From: Eledone cirrhosa
Lineage: Eukaryota
DNA: 64,000 nt
Direction of reading: 5' to 3'
NCBI GenBank assembly: GCA_964016885.1
Contig: OZ024742.1
Coordinates: 42,098,001-42,162,000 of the forward strand
A program made the position numbers and the translations under genes. Shown here one piece after another: positions 322-55,805 of this stretch (the stretch's first letter is position 1; every line of letters starts with the position of its first letter). The notes under the pieces are model-generated. The model did not search any database. It saw nothing but the letters and a program-made list of their open reading frames with translations, and was not told the origin of the DNA.

Positions 322-572
322 ATATTACTTATTTATGTTCATACATTGAACAAAAGCCCCACCTAAGGTTTCAAGGCCAAAATTTGACCATACCTCCAGA
401 ATATAAGAGACATCAAATTAGCAACCTTTCTTCAGGTGCTTAAACTCTTATAAACACCTGAAAAAAGATCACTAATTTGATGCTTCTTGTATTCTGGAGG
501 TATGGTCAAATTTGGGCCTTGAAGCCTTGGGTAGCACTTTTGTTCAATGTATGAACATAAATAAATAATATA
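322..572. repeat. Diverged palindrome (about 115-bp arms) between (TA)n tracts
   Basis: 322-438 is the reverse complement of about 455-572. Confidence 0.85.
354..441 (-). ncRNA. Hammerhead-like motif with extended stem II (degenerate)
   Basis: AAGCAC CUGAAGA AAGGUU..AAUUUGA...UCAAAUU..GGCCUU GAAA CCUUAGG UG GGGCUU; the mirror copy on + (458-540) has GUA at the cleavage site but a mutated core. Confidence 0.55.
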
Positions 573-1116
573 TTTTTGCTCTCTTCCTGATTGAGCACTG
601 TTTTCCTTTTTCCTTTTCACATCTATGGATATTGTTGCATATATATATTATCGTTTTTACATCTTTTTTCCATGGGTTGGGCAGGTCCATTTCAGCGCAG
701 CATCTCTCCACTCGCCGCATTCCTTCTTTGTCTCCTTTGTGAGTCTCAGTGATTTGAGATCAGCTCTCACCACCTCTGCCCAGCATTAGAGAGGTTGTCA
801 TGTCCTTGATGTGACTGGAGAGTTCTCTTACCTTTTTTGGTATGGTTTATATGGCTGGATGCCTTTCTTAATGTCTGCAATGATAGTTGTTTATGTCCTC
901 CATGAACAATACATCCTGCAATATAGTAGTTTGAAATGTATCATACATAGAATGTGGTATGAGTTGGTGTTGGGGAAGGGCATACAACCTTCAAAAACCT
1001 GTCAGAAAAAGATCTCATCCAACCCATGCAAGCATGGAAAAACAGATGTAGAAATGATGGTGATTGGAGGTAATTTTTATTTCTATCTTATTTTGTTGTT
1101 GCCTTATGTTTTTCAG

Positions 1117-1219
1117 AGTGGTAATAGCATTTACGTGATGAGCTCTGAATATGTGCCCAAGTATTTCTCACTACCAACTACACTTGCTACAGAATTTTGT
1201 GTTGATGACAACCCTGCTG
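1117..1219 (+). CDS. TCTN: Tectonic-family gene, internal coding exon (first visible; upstream exons outside window)
   Basis: tttcag|...|gtcagt; SGNSIYVMSSEYVPKYFSLPTTLATEFCVDDNPA resembles the tectonic F-x-x-P...C-x-D-x-N-P-A motif; phase 0 to 1. Confidence 0.88.
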
Positions 1220-2317
1220 GTCAGTAAAATAAAATGTATTACTCTTAATGCAATTTCTATTTAGAAAATCTAAACAAAACATATATATATATCCTGTCAC
1301 AATTGAGAGTGTTGTTATTGTTATGGCTCACACTAGTATAGGTTTAGTCAATCTGCTATGAGGTTTCTTTTAATTGTTTCTAATTTAGGCACAAAGCCTG
1401 CAATTTTGAGCGAGGGGAAAGTCAACTGTATTGACTCCAGTACTTCACTAGTACCTTATTTTATCATCCATAGAAGAATGAAAGGCAAAGTTGAACTCAG
1501 AAGGTAAAAGGTTGTAATGAAATACTGTAAGGTATTTTGTTCAATGCTCTAATGTTTACTAGTTCACTGCCTTTCTTAGGTCTTTCCAATGACTGAGGTG
1601 GGACCCAGAACACACAGACCTGGAACAAATACCATAAGGCATCCCATCCAACACTCTAACAATTCTGACAATCCACCACTCTGGACTGGTACCTTATTGA
1701 GACTGAAAGAACAAAATATAAAGTTATACTTGGAAATGCAGTAAGCTGGAACAAAAACTTCAAGGCATTTAATTTACTCATCGATAATATAAGCTCCATG
1801 TCTCTAGCAAATTATTTGCATGCAGTAATCCTGAAATATATCTGGAACAAAGAACCTCCATGATGGCCAAATATCAGATAGTATGTGTGTATTTATATAT
1901 GATAGAATCATCTAGCAGAGAAGTAACCAGTAAGTTACTAGGCTGAGTAAAAAAAATAAAAAGTTTGGAAAATGTCATGAAAAACTGATGTCATAGACAT
2001 TGCACCTAGATTAAAATGAAATTAGAACACACTGTAGCTGAGCTGTAAAAACATGCCTCTGATCCCTCAGCAGTCTGTTATTGTTGCTCGTTTTTTTAAG
2101 ACCAAGTCTGCTTCTGGCAATAACTCCTAACAAAAACTGACTTGGACCTTAGCGATCCATCCAATCCATGCCAGCTAGGAAAATGGATGTAAAATGATGT
2201 TGATAAATGAATACATTGACTATGAAATAGTAAAATATATATATATATATTCAAAAATTCTTCTCTAAAACGTAATATGTTTTTCTTTTTTAATCTAAAA
2301 TTATATCTATTCTTTAG

Positions 2318-2436
2318 CTTATTTAGTTGACAAGACAGTTCAATGTGTCAGAGATCTGAAAAATCTAGATAAAGAATGTGAGTCTTCTCCAGGAATTTCT
2401 GCTTACACTTATTTTAAAAACTTCAAGGTGGTAGTA
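2318..2436 (+). CDS. TCTN: Tectonic exon
   Basis: tctttag|...|gtaagt; (A)YLVDKTVQCVRDLKNLDKECESSPGISAYTYFKNFKVVV continues the NPA-x-L...C-x-R pattern; phase 1 to 0. Confidence 0.88.
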
Positions 2437-4272
2437 GTAAGTAGTCCTACTTTTTTTCAATTTTTGTTGTCATGAATCTCTGCTGAAATGATAGAAACCA
2501 AGTACAGTCTGTCCAATTTTTACACAAACTTGAAGTACGCGAATTTGCTTTAACGCCTCTTGAAAAAATATAAAATATCCACTTTGTGCTATAACATGTG
2601 TGGTTTTTAATTTTTTTATTTATCAGAAATATTAAACTTGAATTATTAAATTTGCTTTACGTGCCGCGTTCACAAACGTTTCTTCGTGTAAAAAGCAAAC
2701 ACACTGTATATTGTCCTTCATGAAATATTTCAGCTTAGAGTGACTGCTACACAATAACCAATAACCATATAGTTTTTGACAGATGTGTATCCCAGTAACA
2801 ACAACTGTAAGCAAACTAAAAATGTTTTCACTGCTGCAATACTATTATTCATATCTAATGTATATACTCATGTATAAGTTACTCCACCATGTATGGCAGT
2901 AATGCTGGTGTTGTGAAAAATGCTCCTGTTACACATTGTAAACTGGTTGGCATTATGAAGGACATCCAACTGTAGAAACTATGCCAAAAATGGAATGTAT
3001 GAACAAGATGTGGTCACCTGACCTGTCTAGTCTCAAAGCATAACAACCCATCAAGCATGAAAAATGGGCATGATGGTGATGATAGTGATTTACAGTAATC
3101 GTCATCATCATTTCCATTTAACATCAATTTTTCCACGCTTGCATGGGTCATCCACGCCGGGGGGTAAATCTGGCCTGGGTTGGCCATCTGTTGCACCTTT
3201 ATCCAGCAAGGACTGTAAATTTGGCTGGATGCCCTTCCTAACACCAACCATGTTTGCAGTGTGGAACTGGATGGCTCCGTTATGAGGAGGGACAGGCCAG
3301 TTGGTCGCGCCGAACCCATCTCACAACGGAACCATGTTTTCAGAGCCCAACCATTCACGCAATAGAACCATAGTTTTGGAGTCTGGTACTGGGTGGCACT
3401 GCTGAGGAGGGACAGGTGTGGAACCACAGTTTGGCAGCCTGGTGTTGGATGGCACCAGTATGCAAAGGGACCAGTGATACCACTATGATGAGGGACAGGC
3501 CAGTTGGAGCCCAGTACTGAATGGCACTGATACGAGGAGTCTTACTTACTCACAGCGTGGCCCAGTATCGGATGGCACCACCATGAGGACAGACAGGCCA
3601 GCTGGCCATGCTGAACCCACCACACAGCATAACCATAGTTGAGGGGCCCGATATTGGATGACGCCACTATGAGGAAGGATAGGTGTAGGACCACAGTATG
3701 GGAACCTGGCTCACAGCAGGAACACACACAATCTCACTTAACCTATTTTTCAGCATCCCTATGTTGATGGTTGCCTCTCTGAAATCACAGGTGAGGCATA
3801 CAGTTTTCCTTGTGGTGTGTGATATCTTTGCGCAGATTATTTGTGCCCAGTTTGGTGTTTGCATCGTGACCTTGTTCATTATTGATATTACTTACTGGCC
3901 AACGTTATTTGCATGTGTTAGTGGTTGCTAAATTAACAATAGGGTTCGGGGGGGGGGGGGCATGAGGATTAGAAGGTAGTTGCCTCCATGGGTGTGGAGG
4001 TGTGTGCATAATGTGATTAGGTTTATATGGTGGTCTTGTTTTCTATTGGACTTTGTTACGGTGGAGAGTGGGGTGGGGGGTGGGGGGGCAAAAATGTCTA
4101 CGATAATCGAGACTCTTTTTTTGGCTATAGACTACACATGTTATGATTAAAATATTCTAAATAACTATTTACTTAAGCAATATGACAAAATAAATGTAGA
4201 TATGTATTATTTTACGAAGTTAAATTAATTTGTATTCTTGAAAAAGTATTTCTATGTGGATTTATTTTCCAG

Positions 4273-4354
4273 ACCCCGAAGGCTTTTGAAAGGTCATTTT
4301 TTAAATCAACACTGAATAAAATTCTAAATGAATCTAAAGGTAAAAATAATACAG
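4273..4354 (+). CDS. TCTN: Tectonic exon (variable linker)
   Basis: ttttccag|...|gtaggt; TPKAFERSFFKSTLNKILNESKGKNNT; phase 0 to 1, as needed to bridge the flanking exons. Confidence 0.72.
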
Positions 4355-4866
4355 GTAGGTTATTAATAATGTATTAAATATATTTTGCGAAGTTAGCTTC
4401 AACATCATCATTTTACATTCATTTCCCATGCTGGGTTGAACGTATCAGAGAATTACATCTTGCCGAAAGGCTCCATATTTTGGCTCAGTATCTATGACAA
4501 GATGCTCTTCCTCACACCAACGACTTTACAGAATGTATTGAGTGCATTTTATTATGACTCCAGCTCAAGAAAGGCTGTCACATTACTCAACAAAACCAAA
4601 GAATCCTCTTCATTTAAACACCAACCACTATACAGGGTGCATTTTATATATTTTTATGAAATAACTCACTGTGAACAGGTATTTCTTAAATGGAAACTCT
4701 TCATAATGATGCTACTGCTGCTTCTTACAATTATGAACTCTTCTGTTTTAAAGTAGAATTACTTTAACCATTACACTGCTTAACTACAGAAAGGCAATGA
4801 TCTTAGTTCGTTGATGCTGTTAGTTAAAATAGCAGAATGGATTGTGTTGGGTTATCAAATATTAAT

Positions 4867-5056
4867 TTAACCCTTTAGCGTTCATGTTACTCTACATTTA
4901 CTATTATATTTTCACGGTAAAGGCTTTACCCCACATAATATCGGATTTAGGAGATTTGGATATTATTTATTTTAAGAAGTATGAGCAGCTGGTTTGAACA
5001 GAAGGAGGTGAGAGAATTCTGGTTGGATACAGCCAGTTTAAATGCTAAAGGGTTAA
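4867..5056. mobile_element. piggyBac-type MITE family (about 200 bp, TTAA TSD, CCCTTTAGCATTTA TIR)
   Basis: TTAA|CCCTTTAGC...GCTAAAGGG|TTAA; further copies at 6843-7060, 9230-9425, 22921-23120, 47652-47865, 48969-49177, 53696-53907, 58247-58464 and 58636-58862. Confidence 0.88.
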
Positions 5057-7304
5057 ATCTACTGTGGACATTTTGTTGTATTTCTGTAGAAACACTATAA
5101 TCTAAATTATGCCAGTTCTAGCTGTCAGGGGAAATTATTTGTAGTAGACTAGCATCTTGTTCAAATGAAGTTTTGTCTCTTGTCAGCTTAACACTTAACA
5201 CAGAAACAACAATTAAGTACTGGCTCTCTGGAATATTTAGTTTATGAAATAATTACCTTTTAACATCATATCTTTAAAAATATATGTGATCTCAAGAAGG
5301 TCATCCAGTTAAAAATACTGCCTCAGCCAAACCATACCAGCATGGAAAAGTAAAAATGATGATAAATGAAGCAGATTTTCTCTATTATTTTACCAATTTA
5401 TTTTAATTTCATTACACAATATAAACTATTGTTACACAAGAGTTGTTGTGGGACTACAGGCAGGCCAACAAACAAGGTAGACTCTGTTTGTTGAAGCTGC
5501 ACAGGAGGAGTCAGCAGTCTGAGCATCAATAAAATATAATCTTTCCAATATTCAGAAGCCCTCATAGAAATGGTTGAAAGCTTCAATTACCTAAGTAACC
5601 TAATTAGCTTTTGAAGTGGGTACTCTGAAAGCACAGGACCTAGAATAAGGACAGTGCTGGTGTTATAATAAAATGCATTCAGTACACTCTATAAAATGTA
5701 TGTAACTGAAATCCAGCCCCAAATCTGTATGTAAATACAATGGTACTGATTTAGTACTGACTGCTCATCCAACATATGCTAGCATGGAAAAACACATTAA
5801 TTGATGATGATAGTCACTTGAATAGATTGATTAGTGATGGTTTGTGCCAGCTTTCTGCTGGGGCATGAACATTTCAGTTTCTTCTCTATTAAAGAGTTTC
5901 ACCTGAAACATTGATCCCGATATGTGTTACTGGTACTTTATTTTATCGACCCCGTGAGGATGAAAGGCAAAGCTAGCCTTGTTGAAATTTGAACTCAGAA
6001 CATAAAGGGCCGTAACTCTCTGCCGCGAAGCAGGGTGTCCAACGCTCTACCAATACTGCCAATCCACCACTTAGGAAGTCTTTAATAATGGTTTCTTATA
6101 TAGGCACAAGGCCAACCATTTTTGGGGAGAGGAAAGTCAATTAAATCGACCCCAGTGCGTTACTGGTACTTTATTTTATCGATCCCATAAGGATGAAAGA
6201 CAAAGTTAACCTCGGCAGGATTTGAACTCAGATCATAAAGGGCCGTAACTCTATGCTGCAAAGCATGTCTGACGCCCTACTGATACTGCCAATCCGCTGC
6301 TCTGGAAGTCTTTAATAATAAAACTATTTCAATAGCTTTGGCAACAGAGTGCGTTAATGGTTATAAGCCATAACATGAAAAGAGGTGAGCTTACTCAGGG
6401 ATGCTTTATTGGAAACCTAACTTTACAAGTAGGAAGTTTCTATTTTCTTAATATTACAAACATTAAGAGGGCAGTGGATTAGCAGAATTGTTAGAGCATC
6501 GGACAAAATGCTTTGCAGCATTTAGTTACGACCCTTAAGGTTCTGAGGTCAACTTTGCCAGTCATCCTTCTGGAGTCAATAAAAAAGTACTAGACAAGTA
6601 CTGGGTTTGATTTGATCAACTTTGCCCATCCCCCAAAACTGCTCTTTTTTTTCTGTCTGAAATTGGTGTTTATAATGTTTCTAATATAATTACTGTATCT
6701 GGTGTAGCATGGATACACTGTATCTCTATGTTGTAAGAGGTAGATAAAAGGGCTTGCACTAAGAAGGGCATCTGGGCATAAATCATTGCCTCCAAAAGAA
6801 CCTACTTTAGTTGGGAAATGGCCTTAAAATGCATGTTGTTGTTTAACCCTTTAGCATTTACATTACTCTATATATACTATATATTTTCACAGTAAAGGCT
6901 TTATCTCATATAATTATTTCACATAATATTGAATCTATGAGACTTTGATGTTATTTATTTTGAGAACAATACCTTAACATCAGTACGAGGGGCCAATTTG
7001 AACAGAAAAAGGTGAAAGAATTCTGGCCAGATACAGCCGGTTTAAATGCTAAATGGTTAATTACTGTAAATATCTGAACAATTGTTACCACTCATCTTGT
7101 TTAAAATATGTTAATTAGAATTATTATTAGATTATCATTATTTTTACCATCATCAAAAGTCTACAAGTGTTATAGGTACCCATCAAAACAATCTTCACTA
7201 TTATGGAAGCTATCACCAATGTCATATCTATAATTACTACCATTGAAACAAACACCTGTAAATAGAAAACATAATGATTTTCATTTTCTGTTATAATTTA
7301 TCAG

Positions 7305-8804: not shown

Positions 8805-8930
8805 GTTGTTTATCACTTTATACATAATGGTACATATGGTATTATTTCAATCAGTGTGACTCTGCAGTTAATATCTTTGCAAGAATCTGATTTACCTTTT
8901 ACCCAAACCTTCTCTACAGAATTTCAAGAG
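8805..8930 (+). CDS. TCTN: Tectonic exon
   Basis: tttctag|...|gtaatt; VVYHFIHNGTYGIISISVTLQLISLQESDLPFTQTFSTEFQE (V-x-Y...NG...I and Q-x-F...F); 126 nt, phase 0 to 0. Confidence 0.88.
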
Positions 8931-24980: not shown

Positions 24981-24984
<4 letters not shown>

Positions 24985-25166
24985 GAGAGACGTAAAATAA
25001 GAAAATTATAAAATTAACTTACTAAAATATCACTTCCAACTGACGACGAAATGATTCTCTATGTTTTCTTCGGAAAATATATTTATTCCATTTCAGAAAC
25101 TAATTAGTTGGAAGTGATATTTTAGTAAGTTAATTTTATAATTTTCTTATTTTACGTCTCTCATAT
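24981..25166. repeat. Perfect 61-bp inverted repeat in (TA)n
   Basis: 24981-25041 is the reverse complement of 25106-25166. Confidence 0.95.
25032..25114 (+). ncRNA. Hammerhead-like motif with cUUCGg-capped stem II
   Basis: CUGACGA C GAAAUG...UAUGUUUUC UUCG GAAAAUAUA...CAUUUC A GAAA CUAAUUAG UU GGAAG; the stem I 5' strand appears replaced by the inverted arm. Confidence 0.62.
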
Positions 25167-25404: not shown

Positions 25405-25788
25405 TATATTAATAAAAGGAATTCCAACTTTGTCTGATTTACTCGTTTTATCTACAATCCTTTAAAATTTATAATGGTATTAGAATGAAATAGTATGGTA
25501 GAATATTAAATGTTAAGTGTTAATTGAACAAGTACTTTCATGCTTTCACAATCTTCATAATGTGTGGTGACAGTCAGTTTGCAATTTTCAACTGTTGAAA
25601 ATTGCAAACTTGACTGTCACCACACATTATGAACCTGAAGATTGCGAAAGCATGAAAGTACTTGTTCAATTAACACTTAACATTTAATATTCTACCGTAC
25701 TATTTCATTCTAATACCATTATAAATTTTAAAGGATTGTAAATAAAACGAGTAAATCAGGCAAAGTTGGAATTCCTTTTATTAATATA
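25405..25788. repeat. Near-perfect palindrome, about 190-bp arms, centre near 25593
   Basis: TTTGCAATTTTCAAC-T-GTTGAAAATTGCAAA at the axis; (TA)n on both flanks. Confidence 0.95.
25630..25668 (+). ncRNA. Minimal hammerhead ribozyme
   Basis: UGAAC CUGAAGA U UGC gaaa GCA U GAAA GUAC UU GUUCA; palindromic stem III (AGUACU), GNRA loop II. Confidence 0.75.
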
Positions 25789-27879: not shown

Positions 27880-30695
27880 ATCATCATCATCATTTAACAT
27901 CTATCTTCCACGCTAGCATGGGTTTAGATGGGAATTGTCCCACGTGAGACAATATTGGTTGTCTTGCTCGTATAGGAAAGTCTGGTGGGTTTTCTATGGC
28001 TGGATGCCCTTCCCAACACCAACCATGTCTACAGTGTTGGCTGGGAGGTTTTTGCCATGTTACCTACACGGCCACATTACAGCGTGGACTGTGTGTTATT
28101 TTTGTTGTGACACCTACACGACCTCATTTATTTAGGACTGGATATTGTGGCACCAACACAACTTTACAGAGAAAGGGGTGTAAGGTGGAGGTGGGGGTAG
28201 GGGTAGTGGATGGAGGTGTATTTTTGGTTAGGAGGTGCCTACTGACTGTAGGTTTCGCTTTGTACTTAGGCAAGGCGGGTCTTCTGTATTACTACGTAGC
28301 GCCAAAGATCTCGGTCTAGTGACATTGTCTTGGAGAGGTGTAAGTGTGTAAGGTCGGAATTTATCAAATCGTTCCAGGTTTTTCTGGAACTGCCTACTCC
28401 GTAGCTTCCATCTATTTTGATCGCCCTGCACTTTTTTATACAGCTGTCGTCTTTCATGCGCATCACGTGACCATACCAACATAGTCTTCTCTCGAGTAAA
28501 CAACATCTGATCCCTCTTATTCCTAATTTCTCACTTAGTTCATTTATGCTTTGCCGTTCACGTATATTACTATTACACATCCAACGGAGCATGCAAGCTA
28601 CGTTCCTCTCCAGTCTGCGTATATCCTCTGCACACAATGCCCAGGTCTCACTGCCATGTAACATTGCTGTATGTATGCAGGCATCATACAGTCTGCCTTT
28701 CATTTTTAGGGAGAAACCTTTAGCGGCCAATAGTGGTATAAGTTCTCTGAACTTTTTCCATCTCTTTCTGACTCTAGTTACTATACTTTCAGAGCACCCT
28801 CCCCCACTGCTGATTTTGTCACCCAGGTAACGGAAGCTGTCCACTATTTCTATAGAACCATCTGAGCAATGGAAGGAGCTAGTATCCTGTGGGTACTTGC
28901 TACTACTTATTGCACTTGAGCACCAGCCACATCTAAAATTTATGTTCTTAGTTAGTTTACCTGTGATCACACTACATCTTTTATGCACCCATACTTTGCA
29001 TTTGGGACATAAAATGGAGTTTCTGCCTACTCCTTTCCTACACACTGAACATGGCCATTTCCCAGAGGAGACCAGTGCCCTATTTTCCTTCCTACATACT
29101 AGAACTTTCGTCTTAGACAAGTTAATTTTAAGGCCTTTTGATTCTAGGCCATGCTTCCAAGTTTGGAATTTCTTCTTTAGTTCAGCCATTGATTCAGCTA
29201 TGAGCGTTAGATCATCTGCATATAGGAGTTCCCATGGGCAGCCGGTCTTGAACTCCACTGTTATAGCCTGAAGGGCAATAATAAATAGGAGGGGGCTAAG
29301 GACAGAGCCCTGATGAACACTGACCTTTACACTAAACTCTTCACTATATTCATTGTTAATTCTAACCTTGCTGACTGTTTCTTTATACATGGCTTGTATA
29401 GCTCTCACGAACCATTCATTAACACCTAGTTTTCTAAGAGCCCACCAGATAATGGAGCTGGGGACTCAAAAGCTTTCTCCAAGTCAACATAAGCTAAGTA
29501 TAGGGGTTTACTTTTAGCTAGGTACTTCTCCCGTAGTTGTCGTACAAGGAAAAGAGCGTATGTGGTACTTTTACCTGACCTAAACCCAAACTGCATTTCA
29601 TCTAGATCAATTCGCTCTCTGATTAGTTGCGCTATAACTTTTTCTGTGACCTTCATGACGTGTCAATTAATTTAATGCCTCTATAGTTTCTCCTATCTAG
29701 GGCATCTCCTTTACCCTTGTAGCAGTTAATGATGATGCTGTTACGCCAGTCATTTGGTATGACCCCATTCTGTATGACTTGGTTTACTATCCAGGAGACC
29801 ATAGTGTGTCCCACTGATCCAGATGCTTTCAGCATTTCAGCAACTATCTCCGAAGGCCCAGCTGCTTTCCTTGTCTTCATATCTTTGATTGCCTTACTTA
29901 TTATACTACCTTCAACTTGCACTGCTGGTCCCTCTATTGGATCGATTTGGGGCAGACTATCTTTTTCCCACTTATTCTCCTCATTTAGTAGCCTCTCGTA
30001 GTGACACTTCCAAGCTACCTTCTTATCAGTATCAGGGACGGCAAGTATACCATCATTATGGACACACTTCTCCCCGACAATATCACGGTTTTCCTTGACA
30101 CATTGTCTAGCAATCCTGAACATCTCACGTTGTAAAACATGCTTGAACTTTCTTTCCTCTGCTTCCCTTCTTGCAAGGTACATTTGTCTCCTAGCTTCCT
30201 TCCTGGCCACTTGATAGTGTTCTCTACTTCTCCCATCCTGCCATACTTTCCAAGCTTGCTTTTTGGCTTTGATTGACTCCTCCACCTTACTATTCCACCA
30301 CCATGTTACTCTCCTCCTGCCTATAGGTCTGCTCCAGCCACAGATTTCATCTGTTGCCTTCAGCAGGTTAACTTTCAGGAATTCCCACTGTTCCTCTATA
30401 CTGTACGTCTCTAATTGATCTTCCTTACTGTCAAAAGCATCGAGTAGTATGCTTTTAAATTTGTTACTGGCTGTGGGGTCCTTTAACTTCCATATTCTTC
30501 TTCTCAGAGTTGTCCTCCTCTGTTGTCAAGTACGTCTCGTCCTGACTATGAGGTCACTAACTATGAGGCTATGTTGGGAGGTGCATTCTTCACAGGGGAG
30601 GGATTTAGTGTTTACAACCGACACTGTCACGTCTTCTAGTAAGGATAAAATCTATCTGACTGGCGTGTTACCCTGATCTATAGGTGATCAAGTGA
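27880..30695 (-). mobile_element. RTE-clade LINE, 5'-truncated, frameshifted
   Basis: NYRGIKL, MQFGF...ST, VDLEKAF, HQGSVLSPLLF, LLYADD, C-x2-C zinc-finger-like insert, YLG, HGSETW, WYGHV; (GAT)n tail. Confidence 0.92.
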
Positions 30696-30704
30696 TTGTC
30701 TCGT

Positions 30705-32597
30705 TTTTCGAGATAGTAAACCAAGTTATACAGAATGGGGTCATACCAAATGACTGGCGTAACAGCATCATCATTAACTGCTACAAGGGTAAAGGAGATG
30801 CCCTAGATAGGGGAAACTATAGAGGCATTAAATTAATTGACTAGGTCATGAAGGTCACAGAAAAAGTTATAGCGCAACTAATCAGAGAGCGAATTGATCT
30901 AGATGAAATGCAGTTCGGGTTTGTGTCAGGTAAAAGTACCACAGAGGCTCTTTTCATTGTACGACAACTACAGGAGAAGTACCTAGCTAAAAGTTAACCC
31001 CTATACTTAGCTTTTGTTGACTTGGAGAAAGCCTTTGACAGAGTCTCCTGCTCCATTATCTGGTGGGCTCTTAGAAAACTAGGTGTTAATGAATGGCTCG
31101 TGAGAGCTATATAAGCCATGTATAAAGAAACAGTCAGCAAGGTTAGAATTAACAACGAATATAGTGAAGAATTTAGCGTAAAAGTCGTTCATCAGGGCTC
31201 TGTCCTTAGCCCCCTCCTATTTATTATTGCCCTTCAGGCTATAACAGAGGAGTTCAAGACCGGCTGCCCATGGGAACTTCTATACGCAGATGATCTAACG
31301 CTCATAACTGAATCAATGGCTGAACTAGAGAAGAAATTCCAAACTTGGAAGCATGGCCTAGAATCAAAAGGCCTTAAAATTAACTTGTCTAAGACGAAAG
31401 TTCTAGTATGTAGGAAGGAAAATAGGGCACTGGTCTCCTCTGGGAAATGGCCATGTTCAGTGTGTAGGAAAGGAGTAGGCAGAAACTCCATTTTATGTCC
31501 TAAATGCAAAGTATGGGTGCATAAAAGATGTAGTGTGATCACAGGTAAACTAAGAACATAAATTTTAGATGTGGCCGGTGCTCAAGTGCAATAAGTAGTA
31601 GCAAGTACCCACAGGATACTAGCTCCTTCCATTGCTCAGATGGTTCTATAGAAATAGTGGACACCTTCCGTTACCTGGGTGACAAAATCAGCAGTGGTGG
31701 AGCGTGCTCTGAAAGTACAGTAGCTAGAGTCAGAAAGAGATGGAAAAAGTTCAGAGAGCTTATACCACTATTGGCCGCTAAAGGTTTCTCCCTAAAAATG
31801 AAAGGCAGACTGTATAATGCCTGCATACATACAGCAATGTTACATGGCAGTGAGACCTGGGCATTGTGTGCAGAGGATCTGCGCAGACTGGAGAGGAATG
31901 AAGCTCGCATGCTCCGTTGGATGTGTAATAGTAATATACGTGAACAGCAAAGCATAAATGAACTAAGTGAGAAATTAGGAATAAGAGGGATCAGATGCTG
32001 TTTACTCGAGAGAAGACTACATTGGTATGGTCACGTGATGCGCATGAAAGACGACAGCTGTATAAAAAAGCGCAGGGCGATCAAAATAGATGGAAGCTAC
32101 AGAGTAGGCAGACCCAGAAAAACCTGGGACGATCTGATAAATTCTGACCTCATCCACTTACACCTCTCGAAGACAATTCAACTGGACCGAGATCTTTGGC
32201 GCTACGCAGTAATACAGAAGACCCGCCTTGCCTAAGTACAAAGCGAAACCTAGTCAGTGGGCACCTCTTAACCAAAAATACACCTCCATCCACTACCCCT
32301 ACCCCCACCCCTTTCTCTGTAAGTTATGTTGGTACAACAACATCCAGTCCTAAATAAATGTAGGTGTCACGACAAAAATAACACACAGTCCACGCTGTAA
32401 TGTGGCCGTGTAGCTAACACGGCAAAAACCTCCCAGTCCACACTGTAGACGTGGTTGGTGTTAGGAAGGGCATCCAGCCATAGAAAACTTGCCAGACAGT
32501 CCTATACGAGCAAGACAACCAATCTTGCCCAAGTGGGACAATTCCCGTCTAAACCCATGCTAGCATGGAAGATAGACGTTAAACGATGGATGATGAT
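30705..32597 (+). mobile_element. RTE-clade LINE, inverted twin of the previous element
   Basis: ORFs 31118-31561 and 31657-32235 nearly identical to 28266-29408; same 3' UTR. Confidence 0.92.
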
Positions 32598-32624: not shown

Positions 32625-32935
32625 CACACATACAGATAGAACAACCAACTAGTGACAAGTAAATAAATAAAAACACACCCACTCGGGTGTAAAGCATGTG
32701 CAAACTAAGCACACAACACACAAAAACAAGATGGTGTAGGACAGAACAAAGGAGAGACACACAAAATAAAAACCTAGTCACTGAGGAGGTGACAATGTAT
32801 GACAAAAGAGCTCTGACAATATATAAACAACCTTTCGGTTATCGAACCAACCAACGAACTGGAAACTTAATTGAAGTGAAATCCAACAGGTGCGTGTGTT
32901 TTTATTGGCAGCATGACCCTCCCAAAGTAAAACAT
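32625..32935 (+). mobile_element. Diverged solo pLTR of the same Penelope-like family, opposite orientation
   Basis: Reverse-complement match to 33180-33520; degenerate hammerhead GTCA CTGAGGA...AAAA GAGC TC TGAC at 32777-32817. Confidence 0.82.
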
Positions 32936-33177: not shown

Positions 33178-34036
33178 TATTGTTATACTTTGGGAGGGTC
33201 ATGTTGCCAATAAGAAACACATGCACCAGTTGCTTTCACTTCAATTTATTATAAATTTCCGGTTGGTTGGTTGGTTCCACAACCGGATGGTTGTTCATAT
33301 ATTGTCAAAGTTCTTTCGTCACACATTCTGTGACCTCTTCAGTGACTGGGATTCTTTTCTTTGTTTTGTGCCTCTCCTTTGTTCCGTCCTACACCATCTT
33401 GTTTTTTGTGTGTTGTGTGCTTAGTTTGCGCATGTGTTACATCCGGGTGTCTGTGTTTTTATTTGTTTATTTATTTGTTTATTTACATGTTACTAGTTAG
33501 TTGTTTGTTCTATGTGTGTGTGTTTTCATTTTGTCCTTAATTATAAGTTGTGACTTGTTATTCCATTCATGTTTTCTATTTAATTTTGGTTGGAGTTCAT
33601 TTATATTTATTGCCTCTGTGATTTGTCTAAACATTGCGTCTTTTCTGTGTGTAGATTCTATTTTTATCTCTATGTTCTCTAATTTGCCCTTATGTTCTAT
33701 TTTAGAATGTTGGTGGAGTATTGATGAGTCTTTTCTATCTTGGAGTTTTCGCCAGTGTTCATTTAATCGTTCTCCTATGCTACGAGCTGACTCACCTATG
33801 TAGATTATATTCTTATTTTTACATTGTCCCTCAGTACATCTTATGCTATATACTATGTTTCTAGTTTTACAGTTAATATGGGGGCTTAGCTTACAGATTA
33901 TGCATTTCCTATCTATACAGAGAGGTCTTTGAAAAGGGTATGTATTACTAATTAGTGTTTTTATAGAGGTACCTGGTGTTTCCACAGGGGCAGAGGTTAC
34001 TAAGGTCATATGTAGATCATACCTAGATACATATGA

Positions 34037-34040: not shown

Positions 34041-34073
<33 letters not shown>

Positions 34074-34134
34074 CGGCGATGAATTAGTTTTGCGAGTTTT
34101 TTTTATATGAAATCGTGTGTCGAAACAAATATTG

Positions 34135-34649
34135 CTATACTTGGGGAGGGTCATATTTGTGTAATATTGCCAGAATTAATAACAGAACACACTCACTGTT
34201 TGGTTGGTTTTCGCTTCTGTGTCTTTTATATCGGTAATCTAATTTATTCGGTCCTCAATGTTGCCATTGACTGACCGACGGTCAAAAATAATACAGATAC
34301 AATATAGACACAAACACATATATATAGTTTATCAAAGTTCTTTCGTTGCACATCTGCAACATCGTCAGTGGTGCTATTGTTTCCTCCCGTTACACTGTAT
34401 GTCTACGCCATTTTTATTTAGTCTGTCTACGATGTGCAACGAAAGAACTTTGATAAACTATATATATGTGTTTGTGTCTATATTGTATCTGTATTATTTT
34501 TGACCGTCGGTCAGCCAATGGCAGCATTGAGGACCGAATAAATTAGATTACCGATATAAAAGACACAGAAGCGAAAACCAACCAAACAGTGAGTGTGTTC
34601 TGTTATTAATTCTGGCAATATTACACAAATATGACCCTCCCCAAGTATA
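34135..34649. repeat. Inverted repeat, about 220-bp arms, 76-bp spacer; Penelope pLTR-derived
   Basis: 34135-34354 vs 34431-34649; terminal ATGACCCTCCCCAAGTATA is nearly identical to the GIY-YIG element's 3' end. Confidence 0.93.
34331..34372 (-). ncRNA. Minimal hammerhead ribozyme
   Basis: ACCA CUGACGA U GUUGCA gaug UGCAAC GAAA GAAC UU UGAU; stem II covaries with 33304-33346. Confidence 0.75.
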
Positions 34650-35030: not shown

Positions 35031-35630
35031 TATATATATATATATATCTGAGTAGGGTTGAGAGCTGAGAGAAAGGAGTACTCGATACCGAAGTAGAGTT
35101 TTAATATTCAATATTATTAAGGCTAAAAAGTGAGTGGAATTTTGCCTGTTTACTACAGGAACGAAGACTTGGAGTGGAGGAAGGAGGTAATAATAATAGA
35201 GAAGGCTTAATTATGATAGGATGGGGGAGAAGGCGATACAGGGTAGTCATGGGTATAGCCATAGACATTTGACTGGTCAGTGGAAGGCAGGTGGTGAAAA
35301 TATAGGGGGTTTGTGAAAATGTTGATAGGATTGGTGGAAGGAATAAACATGCTATATGTAAATAAATATATTTGTGCTTGTGTGTGTATATATATTTATT
35401 TATTTACATATAGCATATGTTTATATGGTTTTAGATGTATGTATGTGTAAATATGTTTGCATGTAGGCATGTAATTGTATATATATATACACAGATAGAT
35501 CTACCACTCAATGGTGGGTCTAAACCGTATAAAGAACTCAATGTAATCCGTATGTAGAAGATGTCGTGAAGCAAAGTTTAAAATACAAAATTTTTTATCA
35601 ACGATATACTTCAATTGGATACAGAGTCAA

Positions 35631-35945
35631 AATAGAAATATTAAAACAATGAAATTAAACACAAAACTGTTAATTCATAGTAAAACATATTATTTTACGA
35701 TCGTTTCTGGGGGGGGGGGGGTAGTTCTCTGTATAAATAATCTTTATTTCTGAAGACGGCGGGTAGTGAAGATGTATGCATTTTTTTCTTACTATGATAT
35801 TTTGTAATATGTTTTACATAGATCAATAATTGAATGAACATACAGAGAACTAACCCCCCCCCCCCCCAGAAACGATCGTAAAATAATGTGTTTTACTATG
35901 AATTAACAGTTTTGTGTTTAATTTCATTGTTTTAATATTTCTATA
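35631..35945. repeat. Inverted repeat, about 105-bp arms
   Basis: 35631-35734 vs 35839-35945, including matched poly-G/poly-C runs. Confidence 0.92.
35744..35886 (+). ncRNA. Hammerhead ribozyme with long stem/loop II insertion
   Basis: UUAUUU CUGAAGA C GGCGGGUAG...(about 85 nt)...CUAACCCC A GAAA CGAUCG UA AAAUAA; palindromic stem III, GUA cleavage triplet. Confidence 0.68.
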
Positions 35946-39107: not shown

Positions 39108-40091
39108 TTATGCTGTTGGTTCTGTTTCGGATGGTTGTTTATCTAATTGTGTTTCAGATGGTTGTTTATCTAATTGTGTTTCAGATGGTTGCTTATCTAA
39201 TTCTGTTTCAGATGGTTGCTTATCTAATTCTGTTTCAGGTGGTTGCTTATCTAATTCTGTTTCAGGTGGTTGCTTATCTAATTCTGTTTCAGATAGTTGC
39301 TTATCTAATTCTGTTTCAGATGGTTGCTTATCTAATTCTGTTTCGGATGGTTGCTTATCTAATTCTGTTTCAGATAGTTGCTTATCTAATTCTGTTTCGG
39401 ATGGTTGCTTATCTAATTCTGTTTCAGATGGTTGCTTATCTAATTCTGTTTCAGATGGTTGCTTATCTAATTCTGTTTCAGGTGGTTGCTTATCTAATTC
39501 TGTTTCAGATGGTTGCTTATCTAATTCTGATTGAGATGGTTGCTTATCTAATTCTGATTTTATTGATTCTGGTTGAGTTGATTGCATACTTAATTCTGAT
39601 TTTATTGATGATGCTGCTGGAGATCGGCTACTTAATTCTGATTTTATTGATTGTGGTTGCTTACTTAAATCTGATTTTGATGAGTCGGGTTGAGACGATT
39701 GCTTACTTAAATTTGATTTTAATGATCGCTTTGATTTTACTGATCTTGTTGGAGATGATTGCTTATTAAATTTTGAATCTGGTTGAAATGATCGCTTATT
39801 TAATTTTGGTTCTTCTTGAGATGGTGGAACATTTTCATCTGGTTGTGTTGGTTCTGCTTGAGATAATGGTGTATTTGCAACTGGTTTTGTTGGTTCTGCT
39901 TGAGATAATAATGATTTATTTGATTCTGCTGGAAGTATTGGCTCACGTACTTTAAGTATTGAAGTCATATTTGCACCAGTGGTTTTGTTAAATGTGCTTT
40001 TTAGGACTGCAGTTTTGTTAGTTTTACCTTGTGGTTTTGTTAGTTGTAATTTGGATTGAGATTTCACTTTACTTTTTAGTGCAGGCAATTT
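39108..40091 (-). CDS. CFAP97D-like terminal exon: low-complexity K/S/Q/P region plus nonapeptide repeats
   Basis: cctttacag| phase-0 acceptor, 327 open codons to TAA; AATAAA a few nt after the stop (39098-39103); the join to exon 4 is inferred from phase. Confidence 0.7.
   Translation of the reverse strand, partial: KLPALKSKVKSQSKLQLTKPQGKTNKTAVLKSTFNKTTGANMTSILKVREPILPAESNKSLLSQAEPTKPVANTPLSQAEPTQPDENVPPSQEEPKLNKRSFQPDSKFNKQSSPTRSVKSKRSLKSNLSKQSSQPDSSKSDLSKQPQSIKSELSSRSPAASSIKSELSMQSTQPESIKSELDKQPSQSELDKQPSETELDKQPPETELDKQPSETELDKQPSETELDKQPSETELDKQLSETELDKQPSETELDKQPSETELDKQLSETELDKQPPETELDKQPPETELDKQPSETELDKQPSETQLDKQPSETQLDKQPSETEPTA
39121..39558 (-). repeat. 27-bp coding minisatellite, about 16 units (ETELDKQPS)
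   Basis: Unit TTATCTAATTCTGTTTCAGATGGTTGC repeated with few substitutions and no frameshifts. Confidence 0.97.
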
Positions 40092-49196: not shown

Positions 49197-49315
49197 CATT
49201 TTTTCCAACGTAGATAATCTGGCTTCCAACAATCTATCTGTGAAGTTGTGTTGGCTATTATATCTGAAATCTTTCGGTTAATTCTTTCAATGTTCAAGAA
49301 ATGTTGACCCTCTCT
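49197..49315 (-). CDS. CFAP97D-like coding exon 3
   Basis: atttttag|...|gtcagt; REGQHFLNIERINRKISDIIANTTSQIDCWKPDYLRWKK (IE-x-x-N...IAN...DCW as in CFAP97D1); phase 0 to 2. Confidence 0.8.
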
Positions 49316-50024: not shown

Positions 50025-50280
50025 AACCACATTTACAGTGTGGACCGGGTGTTTTTTGTTGTGATACCTTCATGACCACTTTACAGTGTGGACTGGGTGT
50101 TTTTTGTTGTGAAACCTACATGACTACTTTACAGTGTGGACTGGGTGTTTTGTGTCATGACTCCTACATGGCCACTTTACAGTGTGGACTGGGTGCTTTT
50201 TGTTGTGACACCTACATGAACACTTTATAGTGTGGGCTGGGTGCTTTTTGTCGTGACACCTACATAACCACATTACAGGT
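50025..50280. repeat. About 48-bp tandem repeat (about 5 units) inside an RTE-tail SINE-like element
   Basis: CCACTTTACAGTGTGGACTGGGTG(T/C)TTTTTG...CCTACATG units; related arrays at 7560-7690 and 11290-11630. Confidence 0.85.
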
Positions 50281-51881
50281 ACTTATACAAATTAACATAA
50301 CATAATTAAAAATACTGAAAAAATATTTGTACTTCATTCTTTAGTAATAAATGGAGCCAAGTTTTTGTGAAACATGCATTTTTGGCAATATTTTCATTCT
50401 TAGTTGTTTCTCACTTCGACAGTAATATATGAATTTGGTTCCAAATTTCAATTTGTATTTTTCTCATTTTTAAATAGAATCTTTTTTTTTTTGGTGCACC
50501 TAATTAAACCTCATCGTGTGTTGAGGCACATTGGCTGGGAACTACTGAGTATTTGAGAAGAGTTGTGGTAACTCCCAGTTTGCTAAGTTTACAAGTTCAA
50601 TTCGCAGTTGAGTCACTTTATTTCAATTGCACTTCATACTAGCAAAGATGAAATATTAACAAACCTTTTTATTACTAATTACTGGCATTTTATTTCATCA
50701 GCACTATAATGTGGAAAGGCAAGGTCAACTTTGGGAGGATTTGAATTTATAGGAAACTACCTTTGGTACTATGATACAAAACTGTTTGTTTTAACATGTT
50801 TATGTTAATTTAAAAACTTTCCTTCATGAATTTATAAATTTATGTAAGAACCTTTGTTAAGTTATGCTTCAAACATCAGTTAAATAATGAGAAAATAAGT
50901 TATATTAGTAAATCCCTCCAAATTCTCAATTATTAAAAAAATCGAAGACAATGTCTTCCATTAGAGACCACCACCACCATTATCATCACAATCATCATCA
51001 CCACCACTGCTGCTGACACTGCCACCACAAGTTCATCATTCTTGAATACACAGAGGTATGTACCACTTTATAGAACTATATATTGGTTTCTGATGTAAAC
51101 ACAAGGCCAACAATTTTGGGGGAAAGTCAATTAAATCGATCCCCAGTGCACAACTGGTACTTTGTTTTATTGACCCTATAAAGATGAAAGGCAAAGCTAA
51201 CCTCGGCAGGATCGTAAAGGGGCATAACCCTATGCTATAAAGCATGTCCAATGCTCTACCAATTCACCACTCTATATAGAACAGTATATTACAACCAAAC
51301 TAATCAAAATACAGCAGACGCCACTACAGTTTGCACAACTTGCCATGCACACCAGCTAATGATAGCTACTTAAGGCTGATAAATTTTAACAGTACCAGTA
51401 ACAGATTTTACTTGCAACTTTATAAGAACACTAATCAGTGATGACTATTGAAGATATTATAGACTTAATCTGTCACTAGATTTAACATCACCAACCTTGC
51501 GTGTCTTTAGAAAAGGAGTCATGGGCACTTCCCCTTCACACTCTGATTAAATAGTCAATAAAAAAAGCTTATAGTTGATCTAATCTTTATATCTTTTAAA
51601 ATAATTTAAAATAATTCAAAACCCTTGTGATCTTATTTCTAGGATTTATTTCTCGTGAAAGAAAATAAAATAAAACAATTCTTAGTGTTGGAATTGTTAA
51701 AAGATAACTGATTTGCTCAAGTCAGTTCAATCTGATTTCATTGTATATTGATGAGAGTGAAGGTGCGTGGTTTAGTGGTTAAGTTGTTAGACTCACAATC
51801 GTAAAGTTGTGAGTACAATTACCAAGATGGGTGGAGTGTTATGTTCTTGAGCAAGACACTTTATTTCATGTTGCTCTAGTC

Positions 51882-52161
51882 CAGCAGTCACCAACTGGTG
51901 GTCCAAAGAAAATTTTGGACATTATTTGCAATTTTTATGTTTTATTAATAATAAAACTAAAATAATATTCAGTTAAAATATATTTTATAACCCCGCATAA
52001 AAATATTTTAATAGGTTCATTTCATATTAATAAAATGGAAATTCTGTGATCATTATTTTACAAATGTATTTATCTTTTTAAAAACATTCATATTAGTGGT
52101 CCGTGGGATTTAAAGTTATGAATTTAGTGGTCCATGAGATCAGAAAAGTTGGTGACCCCTG
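51882..52161. mobile_element. hAT MITE with 8-bp TSD inserted in a CORE-like SINE (51757-52350)
   Basis: CTCTAGTC|CAGCAGTCACCAAC...GTTGGTGACCCCTG|CTCTAGTC. Confidence 0.88.
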
Positions 52162-52386
52162 CTCTAGTCCACTTATGTATTTCAAAGGGTTAGCCTTGTC
52201 TGAGAACTATGTCATGCTGAATCTCTCTGAGAACTATGTTATGGGTAAGCATGCCTGTGGAATGCTTAGGCACTTAAACATTAATTTTATGAGAAGGCTG
52301 TTCCGTTAAAACAACTGGAACACTCACTGTTGGAATTGATAGAGCCTTAACAACAATATTGTTGAAAATATAATTGAAATTGATAC

Positions 52387-52457
52387 CTTTAGATCATCCA
52401 GTTTAAATGAAATACTTCGATATGGGAAAGGTGTTTTGTTGTCAATTTGTGCTTTAG
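52387..52457 (-). CDS. CFAP97D-like coding exon 2
   Basis: tttcatag|...|gtatca; (A)KAQIDNKTPFPYRSISFKLDDLK resembles the AKP-x-VD-x-x-P...KL..L segment of CFAP97D proteins; phase 1 to 0. Confidence 0.8.
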
Positions 52458-52969
52458 CTATGAAAGAAATGAAAATATTATTATATGAATACAGTGTACA
52501 ACCAGTTTAGAATAGGTACATCATGACCCTGTGTATTGTAAGAGGCAATTAAAACAGTTAGTAGCACGAAGGGGATTCATTCATAAAACATTGTCTCATA
52601 AAGGACTCCATTGTAAGTATGATTATGTCTGTTATGGGGTCACACAAGGCTAACCCCTGCTTTAGCACAGAAAATGGCTATAAAATGCTTGTGAAGTTTA
52701 TTTATCATGGCATCAATAACAGTTTCTCTACAAAATGGCCTTTGTTGGAATTTTTGCTTCTGTGTGTTTAACATTAACTAGGAATTGAAAGTGAAGCATT
52801 TATACTAAATGTTTTTTTGTTTTTTTAAAATTATTTCATATCTTCCTTAATGTCAAGCATCTTAGTTATTTTACACAAATCACAAATTTACATTATAGTG
52901 AAGGCATGGCATTTCTACAATTAAAAACTTTACTTTATCTAACTCAGTGAACTTAGAGTTAGAAACTAT

Positions 52970-53665
52970 CAGTCTGGAACCCCTATCTTGCTCGGAACAT
53001 TGACCTTCTGGAAACTGTTCAGAGACGTGCAACCAAGCGCATACCCTCCATCAGACACCTACCATACTCTGAACGCCTTGCTTCCCTGGGCATGGATTCA
53101 TTGAAGCTCCGACGTCTGGCAATGGACTTGGTGAATACCCACAAAGTTTTTAACCATCTCGCCAACTGCAACCCTGAGCGCCTCTTTGATCTCCATGTGT
53201 CTAACACACGTGGACATGCCTACAAGATAAGAAAACAGCACAGCTCCCATGACTTTCGCAGACATTTTTTCACGCTCAGAGTTGCTGAAGCATGGAACAA
53301 ACTGCCTGCGTCAATTGTTAGCTGCCGAGACACTGCATCCTTTAAGACACTCATGCTTCCCGAAATACGCCAAAACTACACCTGATGTACCCCTTCCATA
53401 CACATGCACACGTGTGTATCATGACTCGTGCACTGTTCATTTTACTGATGTTTGTGCATTGCCCTATGTACTGTACATGCACTTTTTTGATGAGTTGTGG
53501 TGCACGTGGGCACTGTACACAATATTTCATTATTGTTATTGTTATTATATCATGACTCATACACTGTTCATTTTCCTGACATTTGTACATTATTCTATGT
53601 ACTATACATGCACCTTTGATGAGTTGTAGTGCACCTGAGCACTGTACACAATAATTTCATTATTA
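52970..53665 (+). mobile_element. CR1 3' fragment with partially duplicated 3' UTR
   Basis: WNPYLA...RRATKRIP...WNKLP; the UTR segment catgactc...tttcattatt occurs twice. Confidence 0.88.
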
Positions 53666-54804
53666 TATGGTATCTCATATACTAACCTTCATCTAGTAAC
53701 CCTTTAGCATTTACATTACTCTATATATATTATAGTATTTTCATGGTAAAAGCTTTATCTCACATAATATCGAATGAGATTTTGATATTATTTATTTTGA
53801 GAACAATACCTTAATATAAGTATGAGCAGCCAGTTACAGCTGGTTCGAACAGAAAGAGGTGAGAGAATTCTGGCTGGATATGGCTCGTTTAAATGCTAAT
53901 GGGTTAAATGACAGTATTGCTGAATAGTTCCAGTCAGCTCAGCTTCAGTAGACCTATGGCCTGAAGTTAGTAAATAAAACACATGTCAATTATTATTTAG
54001 TTTAATCAATATGGGCTTTCTTTAAATTTACAGAACTGGGGTGTTTAAATCTTACTAAGATTAGCCCTTTTGACACCAAACTGCCTGAAACTGTCCATAA
54101 TTTTATGATACACAATCTCTCATATTAAAGTGTTAAAATCTATATGAAAACCTTTAAGTTAGGTACCACATACCAACTGAATAATGTCAAAATTAGTTAT
54201 ATTACTTAATCCATCTAAATGTATAGAGAGTGTATTTTTATAAAAAATTTGGTAACACGAGTGTTAACTTTACTTTGACTATATTTTACTTGTAATAGAT
54301 ATTTTTTTAATTTCATTTTGACAGAAAGTCACAAATTTGTGGAGAGGTATATTGAATTAATCCAGGATATGCCTGGTATCTATTTTGTGACCCTGAGAAG
54401 GATGAAGAATAATATCTATCATAGCAAGATTTTAACCCTTTTGATACTAACCCATCCAAGACCACCATTTTAAAGGGTTCCTACTGAAATTAAGACCTTC
54501 CAACATAATTTTATATAAGAACAAATCTTTTCTAAATTTGTTAATTAATTAATTAAAATACATAGTATTTCATTAGGAATACAGTAATGAAAAGGTTAAT
54601 TCAAATTGTAGAGGGATGAAAAACATTTGGGTAATGTAGTCATGGGTATACAAAAAGATGGGATTGTAACAGCTGGAAAACTTTCAAGCATAGGTCTACT
54701 TGATCAATGCTGACCTAGGACTAAACAACAACTGTATGAAATACTGTTTGTATATTAGTATTGAGTACACTTTGTGCACTTGTATTGAGTATTATCAGAA
54801 TTAC

Positions 54805-55282
54805 TGAAACATGGAACAAACTACTAGCATCAGTTGTTAGCTGCCTGGACACTGCATCCTTCAGAACTTTCATGCTTCCCGAAATTCGCCAACACTGCAC
54901 TTGATATCCCACTCTCCATACACACGCACGTATATGTGTGTGTATATCATGACTCATACACTGTTCACTTTCCTGACATTTGTACATTATTCTATGTATT
55001 AGGGTGGTCGATTGGCAGTATCGGTAGGGCGTCGGACGCCATGCTTTGCAGCATAGAGTTACGTCCCTTTATGATCTGAGTTCAAATCCCACCGAGGTTA
55101 ACTTTGCCTTTCATCCTTACGGGGTCGATAAAATAAAGTACCAGTCACGTACTGGGGTCGATTTAATCGACTTTCCCCTCCTCCCAAATTGCTGGCCTTG
55201 TGCCTATATAAGAAACCATTATTCTATGTACTCTACATGCACCTTTGATGAGTTGTAGTGCACAATCATTTTCGTTATTATT
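54805..55282 (+). mobile_element. CR1 3' end interrupted by a SINE
   Basis: CR1 tail resumes after 55230. Confidence 0.85.
55001..55220 (+). mobile_element. tRNA-derived SINE with Nin/Deu-like central domain, 14-bp TSD
   Basis: A/B-box-like head (TGGCAGTATCGG; GAGTTCAAATCCC); GCCTTTCATCCT...GGGGTCGATAAA core; CATTATTCTATGTA at 54985-54998 and 55217-55230. Related copies near 1370-1575, 5910-6305 (tandem), 6468-6650, 41430-41652, 42897-43120, 48625-48790 and 51080-51270. Confidence 0.85.
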
Positions 55283-55663
55283 ATCTGCATATAAGTCTCC
55301 TTATAAATTAAAATATCAGGATGAAAATTATATTTTGATTTCCACCAGGTGCAGACTGACCATTTCTTTGTGCTGGCAGCCATTGGGACCTCTGATGTCC
55401 CCAGACTGCCCTTTTCTCTGTCAAATCAGTAGAAAGGTATCTCGTCTGAGGAAGGAGCCCTGTGAAATGGAATGTCTGATGCAGTGAGTATCATTAGCTG
55501 TTCTTTGAGGAAATGCTTTCACCATTTCGTTTGTGGAGCGCAGCTGAGTGTGTAGAGTTTGTTACCATTCCATTTAGTTTTTTTCTTTTTTCTTGTTTGC
55601 ATATACATACATCATCATCGTTTAACGTATATCTTCCACACACATATATATATATATATACAC

Positions 55664-55805
55664 ATCTTTTATAAAATCACCAACGGGTAGATCCTAGTAA
55701 AGTAATCAAAAACAAGAAAACTTCACAAGGGAAAGATGCTTGTGAAGGTTTCTTGTTTTAGATTACTTTACTAGGATCTACCCGTCAGTGATTTTGTAAA
55801 AGATG
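55664..55805. repeat. Inverted repeat, about 65-bp arms, between (TA)n tracts
   Basis: CATCTTTTATAAAATCAC...CTTCACAAG / CTTGTGAAG...GTGATTTTGTAAAAGATG. Confidence 0.88.

Follow-up and report, generated by a model that had tools for sequence, protein, structure and literature searches.

The window analysed here is a 64,000-nt stretch of Eledone cirrhosa DNA (assembly GCA_964016885.1, contig OZ024742.1, forward-strand positions 42,098,001 to 42,162,000). It contains six palindromic inverted repeats, IR1 to IR6, which are probably the insertion footprints of six families of Penelope-like elements (PLEs), the two arms of each palindrome deriving from two separate complementary DNAs (cDNAs) rather than from a single cDNA folded back at a hammerhead ribozyme. 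All six show one layout: two 5′-truncated 3′ ends, i.e. pseudo-long terminal repeats (pLTRs), of a multi-copy PLE family are set head to head, and a tail is present on one arm only. This is the known footprint of PLEs, seen here in families that are new in this genome. The two results most worth keeping are the count of the arms that carry the tail and the TATA-fixed axis of one of the families, family C.

Six palindromes in (TA)n tracts

A BLAST search of the window against itself recovers all six inverted repeats (E 1e-41 to 1e-168) and, among the matches listed, none that links one palindrome to another; this agrees with the preliminary description, which had reported six such repeats without obvious mutual similarity. 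It had also placed all of them in or beside (TA)n, and this is borne out: the tail-less end of each palindrome lies 0-19 nt from the nearest run of (TA)3 or longer, against a background in which 4.4% of the window positions lie within 10 nt of such a run. The opposite ends are 41-142 nt from a (TA)3+ run because a family-specific tail intervenes.

IR1 (321..572) joins two 3′ ends of family A, with (TA)n on the left and the tail on the right (573 to about 640). IR2 (24981..25166; 24986-25161 in the self-BLAST) joins 3′ ends of family D and has its tail on the right arm, and IR3 (25405..25788; self-BLAST 25409-25784) joins pLTRs of family C, with the tail again on the right (25789 to about 25830). 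IR4, of family B, occupies 34073..34649 with its tail (inverted repeat 34136-34649) and has 219-nt arms, 99% identical, around a 76-nt spacer; its long arm (34136-34429, minus strand) bears the tail (34073-34135), and its tail-less short arm (34431-34649, plus strand) begins inside stem II of the hammerhead. IR5, of family E, occupies 35490..35945 with its tail (self-BLAST 35635-35941; 102-nt arms, 97%), and here it is the short arm (35635-35734, minus strand) that bears the tail of ~140 nt (about 35490-35634), the long, tail-less arm (35735-35945, plus strand) bearing the hammerhead. IR6 (55664..55805; self-BLAST 55665-55803) joins two 3′ ends of family F, an old family, and its tail follows on the right side (55806 to about 55890).

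Parent families and their coding capacity

The 3.0-Gb genome was searched with exact family probes of 28-32 nt, whose reversed controls gave 0 matches. The 3′-terminus probe of family B has 7,940 exact matches, two probes of family C have 6,098 and 6,915, and that of family D has 2,890, spaced 522-525 nt; the probes of families E and A have 243 and 142 exact matches, and family F has 366 candidate places.

In family C, one locus (L400, G000:C1:21871800-21881000) is a 9.1-kb palindrome of two full-length elements, 98.7% identical, each with two long overlapping frames of 476 and 775 aa. The family encodes a protein with a reverse transcriptase (RT) and a GIY-YIG domain (Pfam GIY-YIG at 27.8 bits, above the cut-off of 22.6; RVT_1 at E 2.9e-6 and 27.6 bits, below the cut-off of 29.6) with pLTRs on both sides. 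Direct repeats flanking the open reading frame, i.e. a pLTR at both ends, measure 190 nt in L400 and 250 nt in L401, a near-full-length parent of family E, whose GIY-YIG match is weak (E 0.002, in L402); two-ended pLTRs were not seen for families A, B and F, in which the sampled copies are not full-length. The family B copy L024 has an RT and GIY-YIG frame, recognized by eye and by BLASTP to the proteins of family C and of the GIY-YIG copy in the window; the L024 protein alone gives no Pfam match. The coding remnants of families A and F are broken fragments only, matched by pairwise BLASTP: GIY-YIG-like fragments upstream in two family A copies (L172 and L175) match family E proteins (E 1e-10 and 1e-14), and an upstream fragment in a family F copy (L277) matches the family C protein (E 2e-8). 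Four such fragments from these two families gave no Pfam match. Families B and C, as well as the GIY-YIG copy near 33.5 kb in the window, have a CX2-5CxxC linker upstream of GIY-YIG; family E lacks it in this form. Such a linker is described as a trait of the Neptune/Nematis clades (Craig et al. 2021, PMC8557442), and by this motif family C is Neptune/Nematis-like.

Family D consists of a 524-nt non-coding unit that occurs in tandem arrays of 2-5 units, the longest stop-free frame being 74 aa. Judged from sequence, five of the six families have coding RT/GIY-YIG parents and the family of IR2 alone is non-coding, such that the earlier proposal of a class of short non-coding units is not upheld. 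The more general claim, that these are Penelope-like sequences with minimal type I hammerheads that target (TA)n, is upheld. As a separate observation, a 59-nt tandem array at L280 (G000:C26:9848127-9849775) is built from part of the family F 3′ end.

One tail per pair and the origin of the two arms

Among 30 adjacent head-to-head pairs of family B, with arms of 33-3,228 nt and a junction gap of -8 to +13 nt in 27 of them, 29 have one tailed and one tail-less arm. The tail is on the longer arm in 14, on the shorter in 12 and on one of two equal arms in 3, with both arms tailed in the remaining pair. The side of the tail shows no trend with age, tails on the short arm being found at 100% and 99% arm identity, and IR5 adds an example from the window. 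The same rule of one tail per pair is seen in 14 of 15 family E pairs and in family C, where it holds at 18 of 19 loci from a ranking by resemblance to the palindrome IR3, and 8 further tail-less family B loci have an inverted piece of the tail at their 5′ junction. A fold-back cDNA copies only what it holds, so that a tail confined to the short arm needs either a second cDNA or a later deletion. Thus, a near-perfect rule that does not depend on how long the arms are favours two cDNAs over the self-priming proposed in print.

The arms of one pair are also more alike than arms of different pairs: in family C divergence is 3.0% between the arms of one copy as against 5.2% between copies, and in family B 2.5% within a pair as against 3.9% between pairs. 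This suggests one RNA or one source locus per event, and makes it likely that, as had been claimed, the mirror arm is made anew at insertion. The possibility that family C is a single palindromic master copied whole was rejected because arm-specific variants are absent (divergence is 5.2% between arms of the same or of different tail class), the junction strings vary and the short arms share haplotypes with four different long parents (30 of 54 arms).

The alternative that survives best is that a single cDNA primes itself at short hairpins or microhomology, with the asymmetry of the arms, including tails on short arms, arising from later deletion at the centre. Self-priming has been proposed for head-to-head PLE junctions (PMC3846280), and it agrees with the private variants shared by the arms of a pair, with a 6-bp hairpin just upstream of the core in family A at which several junctions fall, and with the junctions of family B, where an overlap of 1-8 nt is present in 14 of the 30 pairs. 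It does not readily accommodate the 12 cases, among 26 family B pairs of unequal arms, in which the shorter arm has the tail, the youngest pairs included, or the tail-less copies that are joined solely to an inverted tail piece. Moreover, tail-less arms and tail-less single copies end at the same base, and the 9.1-kb palindrome of family C persists undeleted at 98.7% identity, which speaks against a combination of self-priming and deletion. Hence, we consider self-priming an unlikely source of these palindromes.

Break points and the ribozyme

A second alternative, put forward in the preliminary description, is that the folded hammerhead sets the point at which the cDNA snaps back, giving rise to a class of non-coding, self-cleaving hairpin elements; we regard it as very improbable. 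It was suggested by the arms that start in or within 40 nt of the ribozyme, a situation that holds for five of the six window palindromes and does not hold for the sixth. To some extent such proximity is unavoidable, as these 3′ ends are short and the ribozyme takes up much of their length. The break points of relatives, sampled by 3′-terminal probe and genome order, give a wider view. In family B (the first 100 of the 7,940 matches, with 7 duplicate loci dropped; 122 arms) the break hazard is 0.0014-0.0027 per nt over 30-319 nt from the end (one 34-nt chance arm is omitted) and has no peak over the ribozyme, which lies at about 190-240 nt; an arm ends within 40 nt of the ribozyme in 8 of the 30 pairs. 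A bump of 9 arms at 268-293 nt from the end was noticed post hoc and is not claimed. Family D (the first 30 matches and 3 hand-picked arrays; 29 breaks) is equally flat, with a hazard of 0.0036 over the 5′ half of the ribozyme versus 0.0037 downstream.

In family C, where 86 arms were drawn from roughly the first 93 matches, a sharp hotspot lies outside the ribozyme: of the 65 arms at risk, 48 break off 30-49 nt upstream of the core, a hazard of 0.037 per nt versus at most 0.005 elsewhere, and of the arms that pass this point 1 of 17 ends in the next 50 nt upstream. A probe spanning the ribozyme finds hotspot ends in 54 of 82 arms, and the spacing is 109-155 nt in 15 of the 23 listed head-to-head pairs. 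A hotspot at the cleavage site itself, which was sought after L400 had been seen, is weak at most, with 4 of 78 arms ending at +25 to +34, around the predicted cut. Clusters near the core, on which the snap-back reading may draw, occur in families E and A: 17 of the 20 listed family E pairs, IR5 among them, do not exceed the combined width of two arms that stop about 10 nt upstream of the core, with no arm ending between -16 and -78 (among 42 loci, 12 of them selected as close pairs), and 9 of the 16 family A arms at risk end at -5 to -26. Thus, some families are bounded just upstream of the ribozyme, two (B and D) are not, and none peaks inside it. The preliminary reading is right in part, in that break points cluster just upstream of CUGANGA in C strongly and in E and A weakly; they are flat in B and D. 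IR6 has no ribozyme whatsoever, the family F hammerhead ending about 60 nt upstream of its arm, and five of the families are coding. The claim that the ribozyme sets the axis is therefore not upheld, and for families B, C, D and F it is already largely refuted.

The boundary of family C is better matched by a promoter. In 20 of 22 long arms, from subfamilies about 80% identical to each other, the first base of a TATAWAWR motif lies exactly 31 nt upstream of the modal end. A spacing of 31 nt from TATA to start is textbook for RNA polymerase II, which leads us to read the modal end, 44 nt upstream of the core, as the likely transcription start predicted for this family. The axis of IR3 (~25594), 41-44 nt upstream of its hammerhead core, falls at this predicted start. 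The idea that a splice acceptor sets the boundary of family C was rejected because the AG is retained in the short copies.

That the palindromes are assembly artefacts, i.e. fold-back chimeras, is scarcely credible. In its favour, a comparison of the IR4 centre with four public runs, perhaps from another individual, found the family in three, placed nothing in the fourth and gave neither a read nor a contig across the junction, but arms that differ by 1-14% plus indels, one-sided tails, the setting in (TA)n and the recurrence of the layout at dozens of loci on many chromosomes with differing junctions argue against such an origin.

A proposed dual-priming mechanism

From the family identities, copy numbers, one-sided tails, (TA)n flanks and break positions, which are observed directly, we infer the following course of insertion. 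The GIY-YIG endonuclease of the element would cut both strands of a TA-rich target, and each target 3′ end would then prime reverse transcription on the same RNA, the first starting from its tail end and the second from its pLTR end. Each cDNA would stop at its own point, and the two free ends would be joined, overlapping by few bases or with scant filler. Most cDNAs of family C would likely run off the 5′ end of the RNA, at the start that the TATA box sets 44 nt upstream of the core; it is such run-off that would fix the axis. The hammerhead would be a normal passenger of the pLTR and, in a palindromic RNA, would be locked in a long duplex.

A precedent is presented by the anole Poseidon element PAc, for which cutting and extension of both target strands were reported in vitro, along with two neighbouring sites of RT initiation between which the tail lies, a predicted dimer, and insertion without need for ribozyme cleavage (Frangieh et al. 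2024, PMC11167929). Two RT starts combined with extension of both strands would yield one tailed and one tail-less arm; the connection of these properties with head-to-head palindromes is drawn here and does not appear in the available parts of that paper. Taken together, the tail-side counts, the likeness of the arms and the in vitro properties of the anole PLE suggest dual priming followed by head-to-head joining. We lean slightly towards a full account in which a dimeric PLE protein cuts both strands, primes a tailed and an untailed cDNA on one RNA and joins them head to head, with run-off in family C stamping out thousands of fixed-axis hairpins that mark the transcription start.

Several points weigh against this account. 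The family C junctions are also compatible with fold-back on a few bases of microhomology, and a tailed arm could also become the shorter one if a perfect palindrome later underwent asymmetric deletion. One arm of L400 begins at the predicted ribozyme cut, on the first base after it (with a 3-nt ambiguity), as the snap-back reading would have it. In family E the near-full-length copies L401 and L350 start at -79, away from the hotspot of the family, and upstream of the break clusters of families A and E no TATA box was seen by eye at -31.

If true, dual priming would account at once for two features of PLEs, the tail and the inverted pLTR. The palindromes provide a countable handle on how PLEs make their inverted 5′ copy, and the family C axis predicts a PLE transcription start to the base. 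With thousands of probe matches per family, the palindromes are also predicted to be a likely large source of long double-stranded RNA.

Comparison with known elements

In PLEs that bear an endonuclease, an inverted 5′-truncated copy, a one-sided tail and a bias to microsatellites have been described (PMC8557442, PMC3846280). The palindromes share with them the head-to-head truncated copy, the single tail, the (TA)n targets and, following the RT, a GIY-YIG domain at the C terminus. TATA and Inr (initiator)-like motifs in pLTRs are reported alongside the self-priming model (Arkhipova et al. 2013, PMC3846280), and a TATA motif in the pLTR is likewise a shared feature. The tails differ, being about 40 to 140 nt here versus 30-40 nt in the published descriptions, as does the sharp run-off point after a TATA box in family C, and in contrast to the self-priming model set out in PMC3846280, the tail counts favour two cDNAs. 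A literature search, mostly of papers outside subscription, found none in which two cDNAs are invoked to account for PLE inversions.

PMC4209133 describes minimal hammerheads in which an additional base precedes stem II, and notes that such motifs also occur in pairs, on opposite strands and separated by 100-700 bp. Like the motifs of that paper, those found here have an extra base between A9 and stem II, a short stem I and a palindromic stem III that is predicted to need a dimer. Unlike them, the motifs of families A, D, E and F have stem II inserts of about 50-110 nt.

Family D is retrozyme-like by its sequence layout. Non-LTR (long terminal repeat) retrozymes are tandem non-coding hammerhead units (Cervera and de la Pena 2020, PMC7229834; bioRxiv 10.64898/2026.07.22.740005), and family D resembles them in its head-to-tail non-coding units with one type I hammerhead each, in its PLE-type tail and in its insertion into (TA)n. 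It departs from the accounts given there in a unit of 524 nt versus about 300 nt typically, and in a minimal hammerhead with a long stem II. A PLE that mobilises family D was not found.

Hammerhead motifs

Motifs were sought with our own descriptor (CUGANGA, an optional extra base, stem II, GAAA, a short stem III, UH and stem I), whose chance level is 0.3-0.7 motifs per 64 kb in Markov-shuffled windows. With stem II limited to at most 60 nt it missed family E, which was found when the limit was widened to 130 nt. An Rfam search of the window at E up to 5 returned no hammerhead family and only (TA)n-driven miRNA matches. Minimal hammerheads with stem II inserts of this size in families A, D, E and F were thus missed by Rfam and by short descriptors. 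The complete motifs by descriptor in the window are at 25635(+), 33342(-) and 35750(+), with 34368(-) added if a 2-bp stem I is allowed.

IR3 has an intact minimal type I hammerhead on the plus strand (25630..25668; predicted cut after 25663) with a 5-bp stem I, a 3-bp stem II and a palindromic stem III; its left arm has a 7-nt deletion running through the core. The family D hammerhead of IR2 (25033..25114, plus strand; core 25040-25046, GAAA 25096-25099, predicted cut after 25109) has a 49-nt stem II region and a palindromic stem III. At the junction, stem I is set off from the core by two additional bases, and its 5′ strand is disturbed; in the family D relative L215 the hammerhead folds as predicted in a computed fold. 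The family E hammerhead of IR5 (35744..35886, plus strand; predicted cut after 35880) combines a 6-bp stem I and a palindromic stem III with a stem II insert of about 110 nt, and its minimum-free-energy fold retains stems I and II (z -2.2). In IR4 the core (34368-34362) is on the long arm, with a 2-bp stem I. Both copies in IR1 are dead (core C3 at 435 on the minus and 458 on the plus strand), H17 being G in the left arm and G8 being changed in the right. The descriptor is passed by 8 of 30 relatives in family A, 22 of 24 in B (with the 2-bp stem I), 27 of 30 in C, 22 of 30 in D and 19 of 30 in E; in family F the motif was read by eye in L279 and L294.

Of the five motifs and possible 3′ half reported earlier, the five are retained as family hammerheads, albeit dead in IR1, and the half in IR6 is not that of family F, since IR6 lacks any part of it. 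The ribozyme sense strand does point outward from the axis in all cases, as had been stated, because any head-to-head join of 3′ ends gives this arrangement. Two side observations concern these motifs: family D shows a compensatory pair of changes (GAAATG/CATTTC to GGAATG/CATTCC), and other hammerhead families, whose stem III is TATATA, occur in the flanks of loci L150-L299, embedded in the same (TA)n tracts.

The GIY-YIG copy at 33.5 kb and other features of the window

A 5′-truncated PLE copy on the minus strand (33186..34035) comprises a CxxxxCxxC linker and GIY-YIG domain, a 3′ untranslated region and a pLTR with the complete hammerhead at 33342. Its GIY-YIG remnant (33500-34030) is real (Pfam PF01541, E 1.4e-4; at 22.5 bits it falls just under the cut-off, 22.6), and to this extent the earlier description of a truncated GIY-YIG copy is sound. 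By sequence it is a sister family of B, with 57% protein identity in the GIY-YIG domain and a pLTR of its own, and neither the family B parent nor a common mobiliser of the palindromes. A solo pLTR of the same family on the plus strand (32657..32929), with a degenerate hammerhead at 32781, faces this copy. The ribozymes of the two pLTRs (32657-32929 and 33186-33472, 82.6% identical) point inward, and the pair likely reflects two separate insertions.

A larger head-to-head inverted repeat of 4.7 kb, overlooked in the preliminary description, occupies 27882-32595, with arms of about 1.9 kb (93.6% identical) around a 920-nt spacer. It is a long interspersed nuclear element (LINE) with an RT and a PHD finger (Pfam RVT_1 and PHD); both of its ends adjoin (TA)n, it has no Penelope parts, and it may represent either one twin-primed event or two insertions. 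Two further inverted repeats, older or shorter, are found at 61124-61366 (68.7% over 243 nt) and 61810-61865 (56 nt). Finally, a 27-nt tandem array of 16 copies (39120-39909, 95%) lies inside a 345-codon open frame on the minus strand.

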